Part shown: piece after piece, positions 57,039 to 63,433 of the stretch
Numbering within the stretch: position 1 is the stretch's first letter
Layout of the letters: every line of letters begins with the position of its first letter
From: a phage
Sequence record: PZ027503.1
Strand: one strand, 5' to 3'
Length of the DNA stretch: 64,000 bases
Made by a program: the position numbers and the translations under genes
Notes under the pieces: model-generated
What the model was told of the DNA's origin: nothing
The model's input: only the letters and a program-made list of their open reading frames with translations
Databases searched by the model: none

Positions 57039-57581
57039 TCACAAATATCGTCTTTGCGGTATTTTGTCTGGGAAAAGTATTTCGATCAGTTTATTATGAT
57101 ATTTACCTAAAAGATTCTGCCCTTTCCAGGTGGCAGGGTTTAGCACCCCTGGTTCATACATCCCCATTCCAATTCCGTAAACCTTATCGTAGGGGCTTGC
57201 TTCAACAAACGTTTTGTATTGGTAAAGGTGTAAGTCTGCATACAAATCTGGATTCTGTACATATTTCAAGCATAAACCTCGCATAACAATACGCTCACGG
57301 TTCTCTTCCCATACGTTGTTATCAAAATCCGACACTGCCCTACCCATACGTTTGTAATAAGCTTGGATCTTCTCATCTTTCCGTATCAAACTATGAGTCA
57401 GAATAGCCTGTGCAGTGTTGTGATCATTAAAAAGCAAAGCTTTACGCCACATCATGTATTGTTCGACACAATTAAATGTCTGATTGTAACCTGGTTCGGT
57501 TTCTGTAAAGGGTGCAATATACCAATTACTAAAAACATCTTTATGTGAAAAGAAGAATACATAATCATCAGTTATTCGCAT
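57039..57581 (-). CDS. NADAR-domain protein (YbiA-like, DUF1768)
   Basis: FFFS...FSNW, VEQYMMWRKALLF, KRMGR, VEASPYDKVYGIGMG, NLLGK follow the YbiA/NADAR pattern. Confidence 0.75.
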   Translation of the reverse strand: MRITDDYVFFFSHKDVFSNWYIAPFTETEPGYNQTFNCVEQYMMWRKALLFNDHNTAQAILTHSLIRKDEKIQAYYKRMGRAVSDFDNNVWEENRERIVMRGLCLKYVQNPDLYADLHLYQYKTFVEASPYDKVYGIGMGMYEPGVLNPATWKGQNLLGKYHNKLIEILFPDKIPQRRYL

Positions 57582-57769: not shown

Positions 57770-58135
57770 TTAGTCCATCCACCAGTAGCCATAAACTGCG
57801 TCTGCGTCGATGAGTTTGTGTTTGTTGTTTCGCATGTAGTCTAAGATAAGTAGACGTTTATTGTATCTGGAGAGATTATGACCCTCTTTTCCGCCATAGT
57901 CAAAATATTTTGCAAGATCTTTGCACTCAAACAAAATTAGTTCGGGAGTTTCTTCACACTGGTCTGTCTGGTACACTTGACGAATGATCATGTATACATC
58001 ATCGTCTTCCGCTAAATGCTCTACTGGTCCACATCCAGCAGGAACAAATTCATAGTCCCATCTGATCAGATGTTTCTCTACTGCTTCAAAGAAGTCCATT
58101 CTTTCGTTGCGCATAATTTGAACGTCAACTAACAT
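57770..58135 (-). CDS. hypothetical protein
   Basis: ORF in track; AGGAGGAAAC RBS. Confidence 0.5.
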   Translation of the reverse strand: MLVDVQIMRNERMDFFEAVEKHLIRWDYEFVPAGCGPVEHLAEDDDVYMIIRQVYQTDQCEETPELILFECKDLAKYFDYGGKEGHNLSRYNKRLLILDYMRNNKHKLIDADAVYGYWWMD

Positions 58136-59136
58136 GTTTCCTCCTGTAATATTCCACCATAAAGTTTATAAATGTTTTGTATTGATGCCAGACAAGATAG
58201 CTCCACTGTTTCTGTGTAGCCGTCTGGCATAGCATATTTGCTCACTGCTTCTGTGTCTAACACCTTTTTGCAATACTTTTCTGAATTTTTGCACTGCTTC
58301 ACAGTGGGGAACTGCCACACTTGAACTTGTCTCATAGTAAACACATTGCGGCTATTCTGTTCTTTGATACGGCGATCACTACTATTGGCAATACCAAACT
58401 TCAGTGCACAAAGAATACCATCTTCATCATAAATATGATTAATGTAACATTGTTGTTGGTTTTGGCCCCCGCACTGCGGACACCCACTCCCCTTATGTAG
58501 CAAACCATCTGCACGCCCTATCTGTTCCCCGTGCTCCTTACATCCATATTTAAACTTACCCATTGTTGAAGGTTTACCGATCCATCCTACCCATATATAT
58601 CCTCTCCTTTCTACTTCCTTTCTTGTTCTATAGGTGGTCTGATCCTCTGTGTATTTGTAACTTGTAGAACAGCGGCAAGGGAGACACCCACGTTTAAGAT
58701 GACTTCCGGTAGCATAGAATTTACCATCACACACCCCAGCTTCCACATATTCATCATGAGAGCAAACAGGACATTCAACCATCCATACTATATCACACCC
58801 TTTACGTTCCCCTGTATTGGTGAAAATAGTGCCTTCCTTAAATTTACCTACCTTCATAAAATCTTGTATGTGTTGCTGGTCTGGAATAGTGATAGCTTTG
58901 CTTCTCTTTTTCGAACGTTCCCTGTAGGCGCACTTAGGACAACCTCGACCATCTTTAAAACTGTGAAACGTTGTAGTATTCCATTCATGACCATGCTCAC
59001 AACGATTGATCATCTTCGTATGCACACCTTTATCTTCTCCATACGTGCCGAGAATGGTAATCCCTTTAGCCTCAGCTATCGGCTTACATTCTTCCATATA
59101 TGTTTCAATACTCTTCTTTACTGGCATATCTAACAA
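58129..59136 (-). CDS. Cys-rich protein with repeated G-x-G-C-P-x-C zinc-ribbon-like motifs
   Basis: CEHGHEW...GRGCPKC, ECPVC, RGCLPCRC, GSGCPQCGG; 335 aa. Confidence 0.45.
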   Translation of the reverse strand: MLDMPVKKSIETYMEECKPIAEAKGITILGTYGEDKGVHTKMINRCEHGHEWNTTTFHSFKDGRGCPKCAYRERSKKRSKAITIPDQQHIQDFMKVGKFKEGTIFTNTGERKGCDIVWMVECPVCSHDEYVEAGVCDGKFYATGSHLKRGCLPCRCSTSYKYTEDQTTYRTRKEVERRGYIWVGWIGKPSTMGKFKYGCKEHGEQIGRADGLLHKGSGCPQCGGQNQQQCYINHIYDEDGILCALKFGIANSSDRRIKEQNSRNVFTMRQVQVWQFPTVKQCKNSEKYCKKVLDTEAVSKYAMPDGYTETVELSCLASIQNIYKLYGGILQEETC

Positions 59137-59164
59137 TTCTCTTCCTATTAAACTGAAATCAATA

Positions 59165-59188
59165 TAACAAAACCCGCCGAAGCGGGTT
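59165..59188 (-). terminator. intrinsic terminator (minus strand)
   Basis: ACCCGC-ttcg-GCGGGTT followed by TTTGTT on minus strand, just after ATPase stop. Confidence 0.5.
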
Positions 59189-59205
59189 TAGCTATTTGTG
59201 CTGTA

Positions 59206-60345
59206 TCAGAATACGCTACCCAGTGTGGTAGATCGCTGCGTTACAGGCTCCAGCACCACTCGCAGAGTGTTTCCTGGTGTAGTGCTCATCACCAGGATCT
59301 TACCACCTTCAATCAGATCACAAGTTAGACCATCAGCAGTTGCACATAGATCAATATGTGGGTCGCCATCTTCGTCTAGGATAACATAACTATTGGTTTC
59401 CATTGCTTCCACTTCATCATCTTTCAAGCTTTGTAGATAGATGTTCAAGGAACAAGCACCCGACAAAAACTTAGTAGGGGTAAAGTCGTGCCAGTTATTG
59501 ATCCAATTCACCTTCAAGGTTTTACCATTAGCTACAATAGAAGCCACATTCCATTTAGCATCATTGCCTAAAGAAATACCCATCATTTCAAGACATTCTT
59601 TAAAAGTCATTTTTGGATAGAAATTCAATTCTTCTACAATGCCTTGAATAACATCGAAAGACAACTCTGTGCTAACATCCCATAAACGTTGGAAGTTATC
59701 TACGTGTTTTTTATTTACCAAGTTCTTATCCAAGTAATCTAACATAGTTTCACTAGACAGTTTATCGTAATTGAAACTGTAGTAGATACGACTAGGACGG
59801 TTTACAAAATATTCCGAGATATAGCCACTATTTTTAGTGAGGATGTAAAGTTTATTCCCACTTCCTGTTCCATCCAACAAGGTCAACAGTGCTTCCTGAT
59901 CTTCTTTCTTAGCGTACACTTTATCAAATTCGTCAAATAAAACAACAGCACGATCTGTAATTTTACTCATAAATTCTAAGAAGCCAGCATCTGTGTAAGG
60001 CTGTGTAACCAAAATGGTTGGAATACCTAAACCTTCTGTGGACATTAGAGACATGCTAATCAGTTTAGCTAACATCGTCTTACCACTGCCTTTTGTCCCT
60101 GTCAGTAACACCCCAGTATTTTTACCTTCTTTACTACGACGAGCAAATGTTTTAATAACATGTGCGGCGCGATCTTTAGTTTCCCCATAAAGAGTGTTCG
60201 GAAGAGAGAAACTTTCGCCACGCACTAAAGAGTAGTTACCGTGCGGATCGCAGTTGACAACCCAAACTCCAGCAGGAAGTTTATTAGCTTCAACACCATA
60301 TTCCTTATTTACAACAGCCACATCTCCAAAAATAGTGTATTTCAT
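59206..60345 (-). CDS. P-loop ATPase (AAA-like)
   Basis: Walker A LTGTKGSGKT, Walker B VVLFDEFD; 379 aa; TAATG coupling to upstream gene. Confidence 0.6.
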   Translation of the reverse strand: MKYTIFGDVAVVNKEYGVEANKLPAGVWVVNCDPHGNYSLVRGESFSLPNTLYGETKDRAAHVIKTFARRSKEGKNTGVLLTGTKGSGKTMLAKLISMSLMSTEGLGIPTILVTQPYTDAGFLEFMSKITDRAVVLFDEFDKVYAKKEDQEALLTLLDGTGSGNKLYILTKNSGYISEYFVNRPSRIYYSFNYDKLSSETMLDYLDKNLVNKKHVDNFQRLWDVSTELSFDVIQGIVEELNFYPKMTFKECLEMMGISLGNDAKWNVASIVANGKTLKVNWINNWHDFTPTKFLSGACSLNIYLQSLKDDEVEAMETNSYVILDEDGDPHIDLCATADGLTCDLIEGGKILVMSTTPGNTLRVVLEPVTQRSTTLGSVF

Positions 60346-60701
60346 TAGAACGTTTCTCCTTTTAAAATAATTACTGTAAACTTTGCAGTTTTTTCACTCT
60401 TAATATTCTTGATTAATAAGTACTCTCCTCCAGGGGCATCTTTGTATTGTTTAATAGCTACTATTTCATTTTTGCAAGTAGCTATAATCGAATAAAAAGG
60501 ACGTTCCGTGTTATCTTCTTTTCCTGTATATGCCTCAACATCTTGGCACTCTTCTAGAACACCATTTCCAGGTGTATAGTAAAATTTGTTGCCTGTGATC
60601 ACAACATCTTTACCAATATCTGTTTTAACTGCTACAAATTTTTGAGCGTAAGTGGTGAAGCTTACGGTAGCCAGCAATGTGGCTAAGATTAATTTTTTCA
60701 T
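60345..60701 (-). CDS. secreted protein with N-terminal signal peptide
   Basis: MKKLILATLLATVSFTTYA signal-like N-terminus; AGGAGGGAAG RBS; start set at ATG 60701. Confidence 0.5.
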   Translation of the reverse strand: MKKLILATLLATVSFTTYAQKFVAVKTDIGKDVVITGNKFYYTPGNGVLEECQDVEAYTGKEDNTERPFYSIIATCKNEIVAIKQYKDAPGGEYLLIKNIKSEKTAKFTVIILKGETF

Positions 60702-60712
60702 AAACTTCCCTC

Positions 60713-60877
60713 CTATTCCCACAACATACAAATCGCAGCGACAAACATATTAGCAATAGCTGCACCAAGAACTATAAACATCGCCAGTTCAGAACAATAT
60801 TCACCAACCAGAGGGGATACTATTGCACAGAGTAGTCCCAATGTCAAACACAAGTTGATGATGAAGTTTAAAATCAT
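60713..60877 (-). CDS. small hydrophobic membrane protein (54 aa)
   Basis: Below track cutoff; AAGGAGAGAAT RBS; two hydrophobic segments. Confidence 0.4.
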   Translation of the reverse strand: MILNFIINLCLTLGLLCAIVSPLVGEYCSELAMFIVLGAAIANMFVAAICMLWE

Positions 60878-60886
60878 ATTCTCTCC

Positions 60887-61078
60887 TTACAACCAACCCT
60901 TTGCCTGGTAGCCTTTAGAAAATCCATTTTCCCATTCTTCGAATTCCTTTTTGTGTGTCATTGGACAGTATGGATTTACTTTATTAAACATACCAAACTT
61001 GAACCCTGCGGTATACCCTTTCTTAAAAGCTATTGATTCTAAAGAGATCATATTCTTTCTCCTCTTAGAACTCGACAA
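60887..61078 (-). CDS. hypothetical protein
   Basis: ORF in track. Confidence 0.4.
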   Translation of the reverse strand: MSSSKRRKNMISLESIAFKKGYTAGFKFGMFNKVNPYCPMTHKKEFEEWENGFSKGYQAKGWL

Positions 61079-61316
61079 TGATTTTGTCTAAGTGTTCTGC
61101 TTCAACTTGGGATAATGTTAACACCTGCACCAAACCTCTGTCAATGCCTAATTTGATCACTTGCAAATAATCACCGAAAAGATCAGAGATTTCAATCTGG
61201 TGTTCAGTAACCACCACGACCTCGTTACCCTTGGTATACTCTCTCCAGATTCGTCCACACTTGTAAATGAAATCTTTCTGGTCTTCACTGATCATCTTAG
61301 GCTTAACGCTTAACAT
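61065..61316 (-). CDS. hypothetical protein
   Basis: ORF in track. Confidence 0.4.
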   Translation of the reverse strand: MLSVKPKMISEDQKDFIYKCGRIWREYTKGNEVVVVTEHQIEISDLFGDYLQVIKLGIDRGLVQVLTLSQVEAEHLDKIIVEF

Positions 61317-61672
61317 TACATACTCCCGTATTCTGGTTCAATATTATGTTTACGACAAATGGTATCCCAACGTTCATTACCAAAACTTCTTCCATGTAGA
61401 GCGTTAAATGCGAAATGCTCTGCCAACCACAATACTACATCATCAGGATCTGTGTCAAGAGGAATTCTAAACTCTCGATCATAACGCATACGCAGAATAA
61501 AATCCTTATCATCTTCAAGGAGATACATGTGACTTTTAGCCCGTGATGCCAAATCAAAGAAAGGAGGCTCATCTTTCCAAACGTGACGCTCAACTTCAAC
61601 ACCATGATCAACTACCAGAGTAGCGATTACCTCTCTCATTTCTTTACTAAACATATTACCTCCATTAACCAA
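61316..61672 (-). CDS. hypothetical protein
   Basis: ORF in track. Confidence 0.45.
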   Translation of the reverse strand: MVNGGNMFSKEMREVIATLVVDHGVEVERHVWKDEPPFFDLASRAKSHMYLLEDDKDFILRMRYDREFRIPLDTDPDDVVLWLAEHFAFNALHGRSFGNERWDTICRKHNIEPEYGSM

Positions 61673-61853
61673 TTAGTTCAACCGATTTGCAAATGTAAAT
61701 CCAAACTGGAGTGAGCATAAGAGCTATACCGAATGCACAATTCCACTTAATTCCCATTTCCTCTATTAGAGACATGATTAAGCCAACAGCACTAATAATC
61801 AGATAGATCCCTAAGAAAGCCATTGTGAAGAATTCAGACATATTTAGCTCCAA
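61665..61853 (-). CDS. small membrane protein
   Basis: Two hydrophobic segments (FFTMAFLGIYLIISAVGLIM, FGIALMLTPVWIYI). Confidence 0.45.
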   Translation of the reverse strand: MELNMSEFFTMAFLGIYLIISAVGLIMSLIEEMGIKWNCAFGIALMLTPVWIYICKSVELIG

Positions 61854-62200
61854 AGATTATCAAAATAACTAGCGAATAAAAGACGGCCCTCTAACCGTGC
61901 CTTCCTTTGATCTTCAGCATACACGATTTCTGGATTACCACTATCAATAAAAGCATTCTCCATCTTTTCTAAAATATTTAACCACTCTCTTCTACCTGTC
62001 TCCTCTTCTTCATCTGTATACGGCGCACTTCTATTTGGATACAAAACACGCATCAGTTTAGTGGGGATCATGACAAACGTGCTATTGTTTGCCTTCTCAC
62101 GGAAGGCTTTAATTCCTGCATAGATTACCTTCCCCAAAGCTGCATCCAAATCCATCAGGTCACTTTCTTCTATTTGAATTTCATCGTGTACAATTTTCAT
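61844..62200 (-). CDS. hypothetical protein
   Basis: ORF in track. Confidence 0.45.
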   Translation of the reverse strand: MKIVHDEIQIEESDLMDLDAALGKVIYAGIKAFREKANNSTFVMIPTKLMRVLYPNRSAPYTDEEEETGRREWLNILEKMENAFIDSGNPEIVYAEDQRKARLEGRLLFASYFDNLWS

Positions 62201-62484
62201 CGTGCCTTCTCCCGATCTGCATCTAATTTCAACAAGAAAGCTGTATACTCTTCCGAACCTTGGTGTAAAAACATGTGATAAGAGCTTACCAGTTTCTTCG
62301 TTGTCGTATAACGTTCCATTTCCCCAACAACACCTCCACCTAGTGTGTAGAGCACAATACCTTCAACTCCAACATAGGTTACTACTTCAACCAAGTCTGT
62401 GTTATCCCAATAGTAGTTAGGTGACACAATAAGATCGCCAACTGCCAGTTTAATGTTTGCTACTTCATCTTGTGAATAATACAT
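62197..62484 (-). CDS. hypothetical protein
   Basis: Track ORF trimmed to ATG 62484 after AGAGAGGAGAA. Confidence 0.4.
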   Translation of the reverse strand: MYYSQDEVANIKLAVGDLIVSPNYYWDNTDLVEVVTYVGVEGIVLYTLGGGVVGEMERYTTTKKLVSSYHMFLHQGSEEYTAFLLKLDADREKAR

Positions 62485-63025: not shown

Positions 63026-63319
63026 TCACATTAAGACACGTTTTGTGTCGATGGGTGCATTATCAAACATGTTAAGAACATTGTCAAGCAGTTTTACTAA
63101 TTCGTTTGTAATTTGTTCCTTTGAACGGGAGGAAGTGAGCACTTTGCTTTCACCAACAATATGCATAACTTTTATAGGAGCGTCTAAAATGATGTTGTGC
63201 TGACGATCCTCTTCAAAAGAAGCCAACCATTTCTCATTGTTACCGTGCAAGGCTATAATCACACCAAAACCGTTAATTGTTTCAGAAATATTCTTAGTTG
63301 CTAAAGTAATGTTCATCAT
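63026..63319 (-). CDS. hypothetical protein
   Basis: ORF in track; first gene of minus block; TTGATC-16-TATCAT promoter-like element upstream. Confidence 0.45.
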   Translation of the reverse strand: MMNITLATKNISETINGFGVIIALHGNNEKWLASFEEDRQHNIILDAPIKVMHIVGESKVLTSSRSKEQITNELVKLLDNVLNMFDNAPIDTKRVLM

Positions 63320-63375
63320 CTACCTCTCTTGTTAATGTTCATACATGATACCTGAAAATAATTTCAGATCAAGTG

Positions 63376-63403
63376 TTGACATGCTTTTTAGTCCTGTTAA
63401 GAT
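63376..63403 (+). promoter_or_regulatory. sigma70-like promoter at divergent junction
   Basis: TTGACA, 16-bp spacer, TAAGAT. Confidence 0.45.
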
Positions 63404-63433
63404 CAACTCATACAAAACGAGAGGAGAAAACAA

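Follow-up and report, generated by a model that had tools for sequence, protein, structure and literature searches.

The question raised by positions 59206 to 60877 of phage sequence record PZ027503.1, of which a stretch of 64,000 nucleotides (hereafter the window) was analyzed, is whether three adjacent genes for a small membrane protein, a secreted protein and a P-loop ATPase act together. A first-pass annotation had read them as one module in which an envelope-targeted pair is coupled to the ATPase. Our analysis favors a different answer: the genes probably represent two separate things located at the end of one operon, an independent cytoplasmic AAA+ unfoldase and an accessory pair of envelope proteins. 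Judged by sequence identity, the window is from a phAPEC8-like coliphage of the genus Phapecoctavirus, which belongs to the Stephanstirmvirinae and comprises phAPEC8-like myoviruses of approximately 150 kb. Over positions 59000-61100 the identity to Escherichia phage ETEC-TG is 99.9%, and 66 phage records in GenBank, nearly all from Phapecoctavirus, share at least 95% identity with this stretch.

The three open reading frames (ORFs) are located on the minus strand at the coordinates given by the first-pass annotation: 60713-60877 for a protein of 54 amino acids (aa) here called TM54, 60345-60701 for a 118-aa protein here called sec118, and 59206-60345 for the ATPase. In related records (phAPEC8_00250 to 00252) the first two carry the label hypothetical protein and the third is annotated as an ATPase. 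All three have a PHROG match (TM54, phrog_27459, E 1.4e-38; sec118, phrog_5474, E 1e-39; ATPase, phrog_2376, E 3.9e-111) and the stretch as a whole is conserved, and therefore all three are regarded as real genes and not as chance ORFs. The stop codon of sec118 overlaps the start codon of the ATPase gene in TAATG, and 11 nt separate the TM54 stop from the sec118 start, so that the co-directional arrangement with overlapping or adjacent starts and stops was described correctly. The trio is, however, no separate unit. It forms the tail of a longer operon, being the final three of about 11 close-packed, co-directional genes that extend from approximately 63319 to 59206 and start at a divergent junction near 63320-63433. 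A scan of the region for promoters yielded 20 sites compared to 22.3 expected from shuffled sequences, and as this count does not exceed the expectation no promoter was assigned. The terminator proposed to follow the ATPase gene is confirmed by an intrinsic hairpin on the minus strand (59170-59189), which begins 17 nt 3' of the ATPase stop codon, closes the operon, and consists of an 8-bp stem (five of the pairs being G-C) capped by a UUCG loop and followed by a U-rich tail. The hairpin folds with -18.2 kcal/mol (z = -3.95; none of 200 shuffled sequences was as stable), and an identical hairpin core is present 3' of the ATPase gene in loci L003 and L013 of the sister genus Justusliebigvirus. 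No tRNA genes were detected within the window.

The ATPase (379 aa, minus strand; phAPEC8_00252-like, PHROG 2376) had been recognized by its Walker A and B motifs, and its subfamily, which could not be named by eye, is on sequence grounds the classic clade of AAA+ ATPases (Cdc48/Rix7/Bcs1-like). This assignment is made because of the Pfam score, the matches to known structures and the invariant LLxLLDG, NRPSR and catalytic residues. PF00004 (AAA) matches residues 79-170 with 29.9 bits, above its gathering threshold of 21.2 (E 8.7e-7), and all other P-loop Pfam families score below their own thresholds. PDB searches with the single sequence and with a family profile returned only Cdc48/p97, NVL, Rix7, AFG2/SPATA5, VAT and Msp1 at E <=0.001. 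Conservation was assessed in an alignment of 56 homologs, the same set that underlies the AlphaFold2 model, with residues numbered as in the protein (Met1 counted). Walker A (GTKGSGKT; K89/T90), Walker B (VLFDEF; D138/E139), sensor-1 N172, the LLTLLDG motif (LLxLLDG; D158/G159) and the NRPSR motif of the second region of homology with its arginine fingers R183 and R186 are each invariant in 56/56 sequences, and the aromatic residue of pore loop 1 (Y117) is Y or F in 55 of the 56. NRPSR and LLTLLDG align to the RPGR and LLTxMDG motifs of Cdc48/Rix7. Such residues are the hallmarks of classic-clade AAA+ proteins that are active.

According to the AlphaFold2 monomer model (predicted local distance difference test, pLDDT, 86.6), the protein starts with a small beta domain of five short strands plus linker (approximately residues 1-55; 60181-60345), followed by the AAA+ alpha/beta core that holds all motif residues listed above (approximately residues 56-196; 59758-60180), a helical lid of four helices (approximately residues 197-259; 59569-59757), and a variable beta-rich C-terminal domain (approximately residues 260-370) with a flexible tail up to F379 (together 59209-59568, all on the minus strand). 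Mean identity across the family is 33% in the N-terminal domain, with G17, L40, P49 and Y53 invariant, 50% in the lid, which contains a conserved SFD..Q..EELN.YP motif, and only 19% in the C-terminal domain. Neither the N- nor the C-terminal domain matches any Pfam family or any significant NCBIfam or PADLOC family. The protein is predicted to be soluble, as no segment reaches a mean Kyte-Doolittle hydropathy of 1.6 over 19 residues (KD19; maximum 1.42). It shares only 15–20% identity with the known classic-clade remodelers (the D2 domain of Cdc48/p97/VAT, Rix7/NVL, AFG2/SPATA5, Bcs1, Msp1, NSF-D2 and Mpa/PAN) and differs from them in being a single AAA module with its own N-terminal beta domain and variable beta-rich C-terminal domain. 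Unlike Bcs1, Msp1 and FtsH it has no transmembrane anchor, and it lacks a protease domain.

To our knowledge, all characterized classic-clade AAA+ proteins unfold or remodel other proteins. By analogy with every characterized member of the clade, the phage ATPase likely forms a ring, probably a hexamer, in which ATP would be bound at the subunit interfaces by Walker A K89, Walker B D138/E139, sensor-1 N172 and the arginine fingers R183/R186. The pore-loop aromatic Y117 would then pull a protein substrate into the ring and thereby unfold or remodel it, while the conserved N-terminal and the variable C-terminal beta domains might choose the substrate or partner, and the flexible aromatic tail might dock onto a partner or a neighboring subunit. 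Ring assembly and unfoldase activity are thus inferred, as is expression early in infection.

The ATPase belongs to a family that, by the sequence searches, is very large and almost purely viral. Searches by tblastn gave matches in 395 of 50,697 phage records, which include Stephanstirmvirinae, jumbo phages of the Mimasvirus/Eneladusvirus type (GAP32, Serratia BF, Yersinia fHe-Yen9), Grimontviridae (Salmonella 7-11, Aeromonas BUCT695), Agrobacterium Atu_ph07, Herelleviridae of Bacillus, Enterococcus, Staphylococcus and Lactobacillus, Lactococcus 949-like phages, and crAss-like phages; the distant matches start at residues 2-23. When 1.84 billion cluster representatives were searched with a profile, 2,993 clusters (50% identity) were retrieved at E <=1e-30, nearly all of them with 350–410 aa and matching over the N-terminal domain, core and lid. 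In prokaryotes, only 27 loci with homologs were found among 185,579 species (one genome each), mostly on contigs of metagenome-assembled genomes. Foldseek searches against viral structure models returned the ATPase's own family first and then Bcs1-like ATPases of giant viruses. The family ranks among the larger uncharacterized protein families of virulent tailed phages, with members in Stephanstirmvirinae, Herelleviridae, crAss-like, jumbo and many aquatic phages. In Justusliebigvirus (L017, L021, L022) a second ATPase paralog with 43–44% identity is encoded just downstream of anaerobic ribonucleotide reductase-like genes (nrdD/nrdG-like by eye); the Phapecoctavirus records contain a single copy.

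Within PHROG 2376 the ATPase is a full-length member (residues 1-372 over profile positions 1-358), and the crAss-like ATPases cr124_1, cr118_1 and cr272_1 are linked to it by tblastn and Foldseek via the N-terminal domain, AAA core and lid. The replication block of crAss-like phages contains four highly conserved genes, among them that of an “AAA domain ATPase,” ATP_43b, the only conserved AAA ATPase listed (PMC7886860). Because ATP_43b is the sole conserved AAA ATPase in that list, the present family may correspond to it. The genes are conserved and of unknown function in both groups, but the crAss-like proteins are shorter, with approximately 297 aa, most of the C-terminal domain being absent. 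Their genomic setting differs as well: the crAss ATPase is part of the replication block, with the cr124_1 homolog located between primase and exonuclease, whereas the ATPase gene in the window is the last cistron of an operon made up of small accessory genes. Outside the crAss-like phages the gene lies amid small hypothetical genes, frequently near tRNAs.

In contrast to this widespread family, both putative envelope proteins are restricted to close relatives of the window. For these two proteins, transmembrane segments and signal peptides were called with our own hydropathy and (-3,-1) heuristics, not with SignalP or TMHMM. TM54 (phAPEC8_00250-like, minus strand) starts at an ATG preceded by an AAGGAG Shine-Dalgarno sequence and is a predicted two-helix membrane hairpin, with two hydrophobic segments (KD19 of 2.45 for windows starting at residues 2 and 34) connected by the short loop PLVGEYCSE and followed by the C-terminus ...CMLWE. 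This hydropathy profile agrees with its earlier description as a 54-aa hydrophobic membrane protein. A Pfam scan gave DUF6358 as best match (E 0.45, far under the cut-off), and no significant Pfam, NCBIfam or PADLOC family was found. Among 5.8 billion proteins TM54 forms a single 90%-identity cluster, named “TMhelix containing protein.”

The ATG start of sec118 is preceded by GGAGGG, and a longer, TTG-initiated version of the ORF (128 aa) lacks a ribosome-binding site. Its N-terminus, MKKLILATLLATVSFTTYA followed by QK after the predicted cleavage point, has a KK n-region, a hydrophobic core with a mean hydropathy of approximately 2.3 over 11 residues (KD11), and a T-x-A cleavage-type site with small residues at -3 and -1; as it contains no cysteine there is no lipobox, and the protein is not expected to be a lipoprotein. 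By these heuristic features of a Sec-secreted protein (K/R in the n-region, core, small -3/-1 residues, no lipobox Cys), sec118 is predicted to be a secreted, periplasmic precursor with a signal peptide of 19 residues and a mature part of about 99 aa. Homologs with 39–66% identity retain the signal peptide, the A19/Q20 junction, C52 and C76, with SYA/Q, AHA/Q and ASA/A as cleavage-type sites (slash, cleavage point), which supports the signal peptide proposed earlier. No Pfam match was obtained, for mature sec118 none even at E <=10, and no significant NCBIfam or PADLOC family. In the structure model the protein is all-beta with seven strands, and C52 and C76 are on adjacent strands, a position compatible with a periplasmic disulfide. 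Thus sec118 is probably a small, disulfide-bonded periplasmic beta-barrel, with a fold that is weakly modeled. Only five 90%-identity clusters of it exist among the 5.8 billion proteins. All clusters of TM54 and sec118 are close relatives from Phapecoctavirus only, and since the deep searches returned nothing else, no remote family could be built for either protein.

Comparison with related phages indicates that the interval containing TM54 and sec118 is a hypervariable slot between two conserved anchors. One anchor is the ATPase gene, and the other, upstream, is a gene for an 83-aa protein (61065-61316, minus strand), which is 76–95% identical between Phapecoctavirus and Justusliebigvirus. 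In phages of the phiWec186 type, also Phapecoctavirus, the 83-aa protein is 95% and the ATPase 80% identical to the window, compared to 39% for sec118 and 48% for TM54 (47–50% across this type). When the slot (60345-61064) was compared in loci L003, L006 and L011-L014, identities among Phapecoctavirus sublineages ranged from 39 to 50%, and a gene with similarity to ribosome modulation factor (RMF) was either present or absent. In Justusliebigvirus the 83-aa protein (76%) and the ATPase (64.5%) are still recognizable and the slot contents are unrelated: it encodes either a 57-aa and a 145-aa protein with two transmembrane segments each, or two paralogous two-segment proteins of 130–153 aa. These Justusliebigvirus proteins, sometimes duplicated, bear a ...FGKQQIPEVIHQLLMWK...WIAPKVYLIEYAA motif.

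A second line of evidence stems from the surroundings of the ATPase gene in other phages. At 80 IMG/VR loci with an ATPase homolog, co-directional neighbors were scored for transmembrane segments and signal peptides, and counts were made for 51 ATPase clusters (70% identity) outside Stephanstirmvirinae. An envelope-type protein was found at position -1 in 5/42 and at position -2 in 5/39 clusters (12–13%), compared to 13–29% at other positions, and both positions were occupied by envelope-type proteins in a single one of 39 clusters. Homologs of sec118 or TM54 were absent from approximately 90 ATPase loci outside Phapecoctavirus, and a search of approximately 90 loci for a neighbor conserved across the family yielded only antisense shadow ORFs and lineage-specific synteny. 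The latter concerns two neighbors. In 13 IMG/VR loci, from metagenomic and mostly aquatic phage contigs (e.g., L072, 180-677), a 165-aa protein that resembles a macro domain by eye is encoded directly before the ATPase, and in 12 loci an SGNH/GDSL-like protein of 138 aa is encoded approximately 1.4 kb downstream of it; both neighbors probably reflect synteny within lineages.

The ATPase gene is regarded as independent because its partners are absent elsewhere, diverge faster and are replaced, and because envelope-type neighbors are no commoner than background. The proposal of the first-pass annotation that pair and ATPase form one module is therefore not supported: the ATPase occurs in hundreds of unrelated phages without the partners, which for their part are confined to Phapecoctavirus, diverge far faster and have non-homologous replacements in the sister genus, and in the 51 ATPase clusters the two upstream positions are not enriched in envelope-type proteins. 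As a three-gene envelope module, the finding fails and matters little. It might still be argued that the ATPase powers, assembles or extracts the membrane and periplasmic proteins in the manner of Bcs1, FtsH or Msp1, and so serves envelope modification or exclusion. We regard this as unlikely, but several points weigh against the separation preferred here and have to be stated together. All Stephanstirmvirinae-like lineages examined (the window, phiWec186/L011, BME3/L012/L013, and L014) encode membrane proteins directly upstream of the ATPase, so that a lineage-restricted functional link may remain, and the TAATG overlap couples translation of sec118 to that of the ATPase. The context counts were obtained with a crude ORF caller of our own and hydropathy thresholds, not with curated calls or SignalP/TMHMM, and the confidence of the sec118 model is only low to medium (pLDDT 62.8 overall, approximately 75 in the core). 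The pore-loop aromatic is followed by T and then D or G, that is, Y/F-T-D/G, a difference to the canonical aromatic-hydrophobic-Gly of the remodelers. Lastly, the literature on phAPEC8, Stephanstirmvirinae, Herelleviridae, ATP_43b and phage AAA+ unfoldases yielded no functional study, oligomer model, expression data or other experimental results for any member of the ATPase family. On balance, we prefer to treat the unfoldase and the envelope pair as separate, and because the large viral family is independent of envelope genes, the job of the ATPase would be a general, cytoplasmic one in the infection by large virulent phages.

Even as an independent gene, the ATPase could have a role other than protein unfolding, for example in replication, where it could load helicases, act as a clamp-loader-like factor or be a regulator of the DnaA/Hda type. 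Its location in the replication block of crAss-like phages and the GenBank label “DnaA regulatory inactivator Hda” of an ortholog (OM362897) might point in this direction. This role appears improbable, if slightly less so than a joint module, as the Hda model TIGR03420 reaches 19.0 bits where its cut-off demands 194.8, and the NCBIfam models for RFC, DnaX (11–15 bits vs. cut-offs of 250–969) and DnaC-type proteins are all far under their cut-offs. Moreover, the PDB profile search returned classic-clade protein remodelers only at E <=0.001, without a clamp loader among the matches, the classic-clade LLxLLDG and two-arginine NRPSR motifs are invariant, the arginine-finger motif is not the SRC of clamp loaders, and the model lacks the initiator-specific helical insertion between strand 2 and helix 2. 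The clamp-loader family phrog_168 matches with E 1.4e-4, compared to E 3.9e-111 for phrog_2376, and the neighbors outside the crAss-like phages are not replication genes. A housekeeping ATPase such as a clamp loader or a terminase, which the first-pass annotation had named as the identity that would speak against its reading, was thus recovered neither by scans with hidden Markov models nor by motifs or PDB searches; for the terminase large subunit, no family appeared in the Pfam, PHROG and NCBIfam match lists. Other orthologs are labeled “FtsH-like protease” (MZ501084) and “putative ATPase or Zn metalloprotease” (OM386654). A protease of the FtsH type was rejected because of the missing transmembrane segment and HExxH motif and a beta-rich C-terminal domain without Pfam match, and the Hda and FtsH-like labels are, judged by these comparisons, over-annotations. 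Packaging motor is a further mislabel of the family in GenBank. Among known anti-phage defense ATPases (PADLOC), the best match was mad8 (E 4.4e-5, 21 bits), which reflects similarity at the level of the P-loop only.

For TM54 and sec118, the best available analogy is superinfection exclusion of the T4 Imm/Sp type, and it concerns architecture only. T4 Imm is a small inner-membrane protein and Sp (spackle) a periplasmic protein, and together they constitute a superinfection-exclusion pair. Likewise, the window encodes a small two-transmembrane protein and a signal-peptide-bearing periplasmic protein of about 100 aa among the accessory genes of a large virulent myovirus. However, T4 Sp is helical whereas sec118 is predicted to be all-beta, the T4 imm and sp genes are not adjacent, and membership in the T4 families was rejected, as neither protein has a significant Pfam match and their PHROG families are of unknown function. 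Small periplasmic or secreted beta-barrel binders are also among the closest systems, namely the lipocalin fold of Tp0751, the immunity protein BtaiB of a type VI secretion system, the Cap15 barrel, avidins, and staphostatin. Alternatively, the pair could be related to lysis, with TM54 as a holin or antiholin and sec118 as a spanin-like periplasmic component. Size and two-segment topology of TM54 do resemble class II holins and pinholins, and sec118 is predicted to be exported, but a lysis function is nonetheless very hard to credit: the end of TM54, ...CMLWE, lacks the charged cytoplasmic tail typical of holins, sec118 has neither the lipobox of an o-spanin nor the membrane anchor of an i-spanin, no holin or spanin matches were obtained in Pfam and PHROG, no endolysin gene is adjacent, and the pair resides among small accessory genes (RMF-like, homing endonuclease, NADAR). 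An essential lysis cassette with a fixed position would also not normally be exchanged for unrelated genes, as has happened in the sister genus. Rapid divergence, this replacement and the accessory-type neighbors rather make TM54 and sec118 look like genes with an accessory, conflict-type function at the envelope. TM54 would then be an inner-membrane hairpin and sec118 a barrel in the periplasm, most likely acting at the envelope on their own, for instance by excluding superinfecting phages or by binding or inhibiting a target in the periplasm. We infer this location and any envelope function from the predicted features, and an accessory role such as superinfection exclusion may be a reasonable guess. 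In therapeutic phages of the phAPEC8-like group, genes for superinfection exclusion or protection of the envelope could be sought in this slot.

The description of the ATPase as being of the protein-remodeling type, traveling alone and ending in a conserved aromatic tail offers handles for a substrate search, and of these features the tail is a new detail. An F, Y or W is present within the last five residues in 227 of 254 family members compared to 107 ± 7.6 expected, and a hydrophobic-aromatic dipeptide occurs in the tail of 139/254 compared to 31.5 ± 5.5; expectations were derived from random windows of the last 100 residues, and the counts are not corrected for relatedness. The ATPase in the window ends in ...LGSVF (F379), and other members in ...RRLFK, ...MFDGK, ...SGLY or ...FRVW. 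In the AlphaFold2 model the tail (59209-59230, minus strand) is flexible or disordered (pLDDT <50), and the aromatic residue is retained although the preceding C-terminal domain is only 19% identical. This pattern resembles docking tails of the HbYX/HslU type and hints at a partner: the tails with which PAN, Rpt, Mpa and Cdc48 dock onto the 20S proteasome, and HslU onto HslV, likewise are flexible C-termini with a hydrophobic-aromatic dipeptide. In contrast to HbYX, however, the position of the aromatic residue varies from last to fifth-from-last in the phage family and Phe is commoner than Tyr, and the likeness is one of sequence statistics, not of membership. We know of no 20S proteasome in E. 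coli. It is conceivable, yet doubtful, that this family represents stand-alone, essentially phage-only unfoldases that use the tail to dock the phage ring onto a peptidase, be it of the host or of the phage, or onto a different partner ring. If so, proteolysis or disassembly could be turned on host defense or housekeeping proteins early in infection, and in Stephanstirmvirinae the ATPase might also service the membrane proteins encoded just upstream.

The other genes noted in the region are all on the minus strand. Directly upstream of TM54 and outside the proposed module, a third occupant of the slot encodes a 54-aa RMF/CrpP-like protein (60887-61051). It matches NCBIfam PRK14563 (ribosome modulation factor) with E 1.1e-5 and 25.2 bits, below the cut-off of 40, and phrog_26347 with E 1.6e-42; no Pfam match was found at E <=10. 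It shares the pattern GYxAG...CP...W..G with ribosome modulation factor, which suggests a resemblance only. The window shares the gene with ETEC-TG and SKA64, whereas the slot lacks it in phiWec186 and L011. Further upstream in the same operon are genes for a small protein with two transmembrane segments (61665-61853; 62 aa from a TTG start, 58 aa in the ETEC-TG annotation), a “Phage tudor” domain protein (62197-62484; PF24144, E 8e-25), and a DUF7325 protein (63026-63319; PF24011, E 6e-24). Immediately 3' of the terminator, a free-standing homing-endonuclease-like gene (58129-59136) contains three repeats with CapR homology (E 1.5e-23), weak treble-clef and T5orf172 similarities, and a match to phrog_681 “endonuclease” (E 1e-64). 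It is 38–58% identical between phages compared to 80–96% for the flanking genes, a variability that would be expected of a mobile gene beside a conserved one. Four genes downstream of the ATPase, a 180-aa protein (57039-57581) contains a NADAR domain (PF08719, E 7.8e-36, above cut-off). NADAR enzymes reverse the ADP-ribosylation of DNA bases, and by analogy this gene could serve in counter-defense against DarT-type toxins. Finally, some records with 96% identity are named Campylobacter phage B15/A150 and Acinetobacter phage vB_AbaM_ABPW7, and these names look like host misassignments of coliphage-type genomes.

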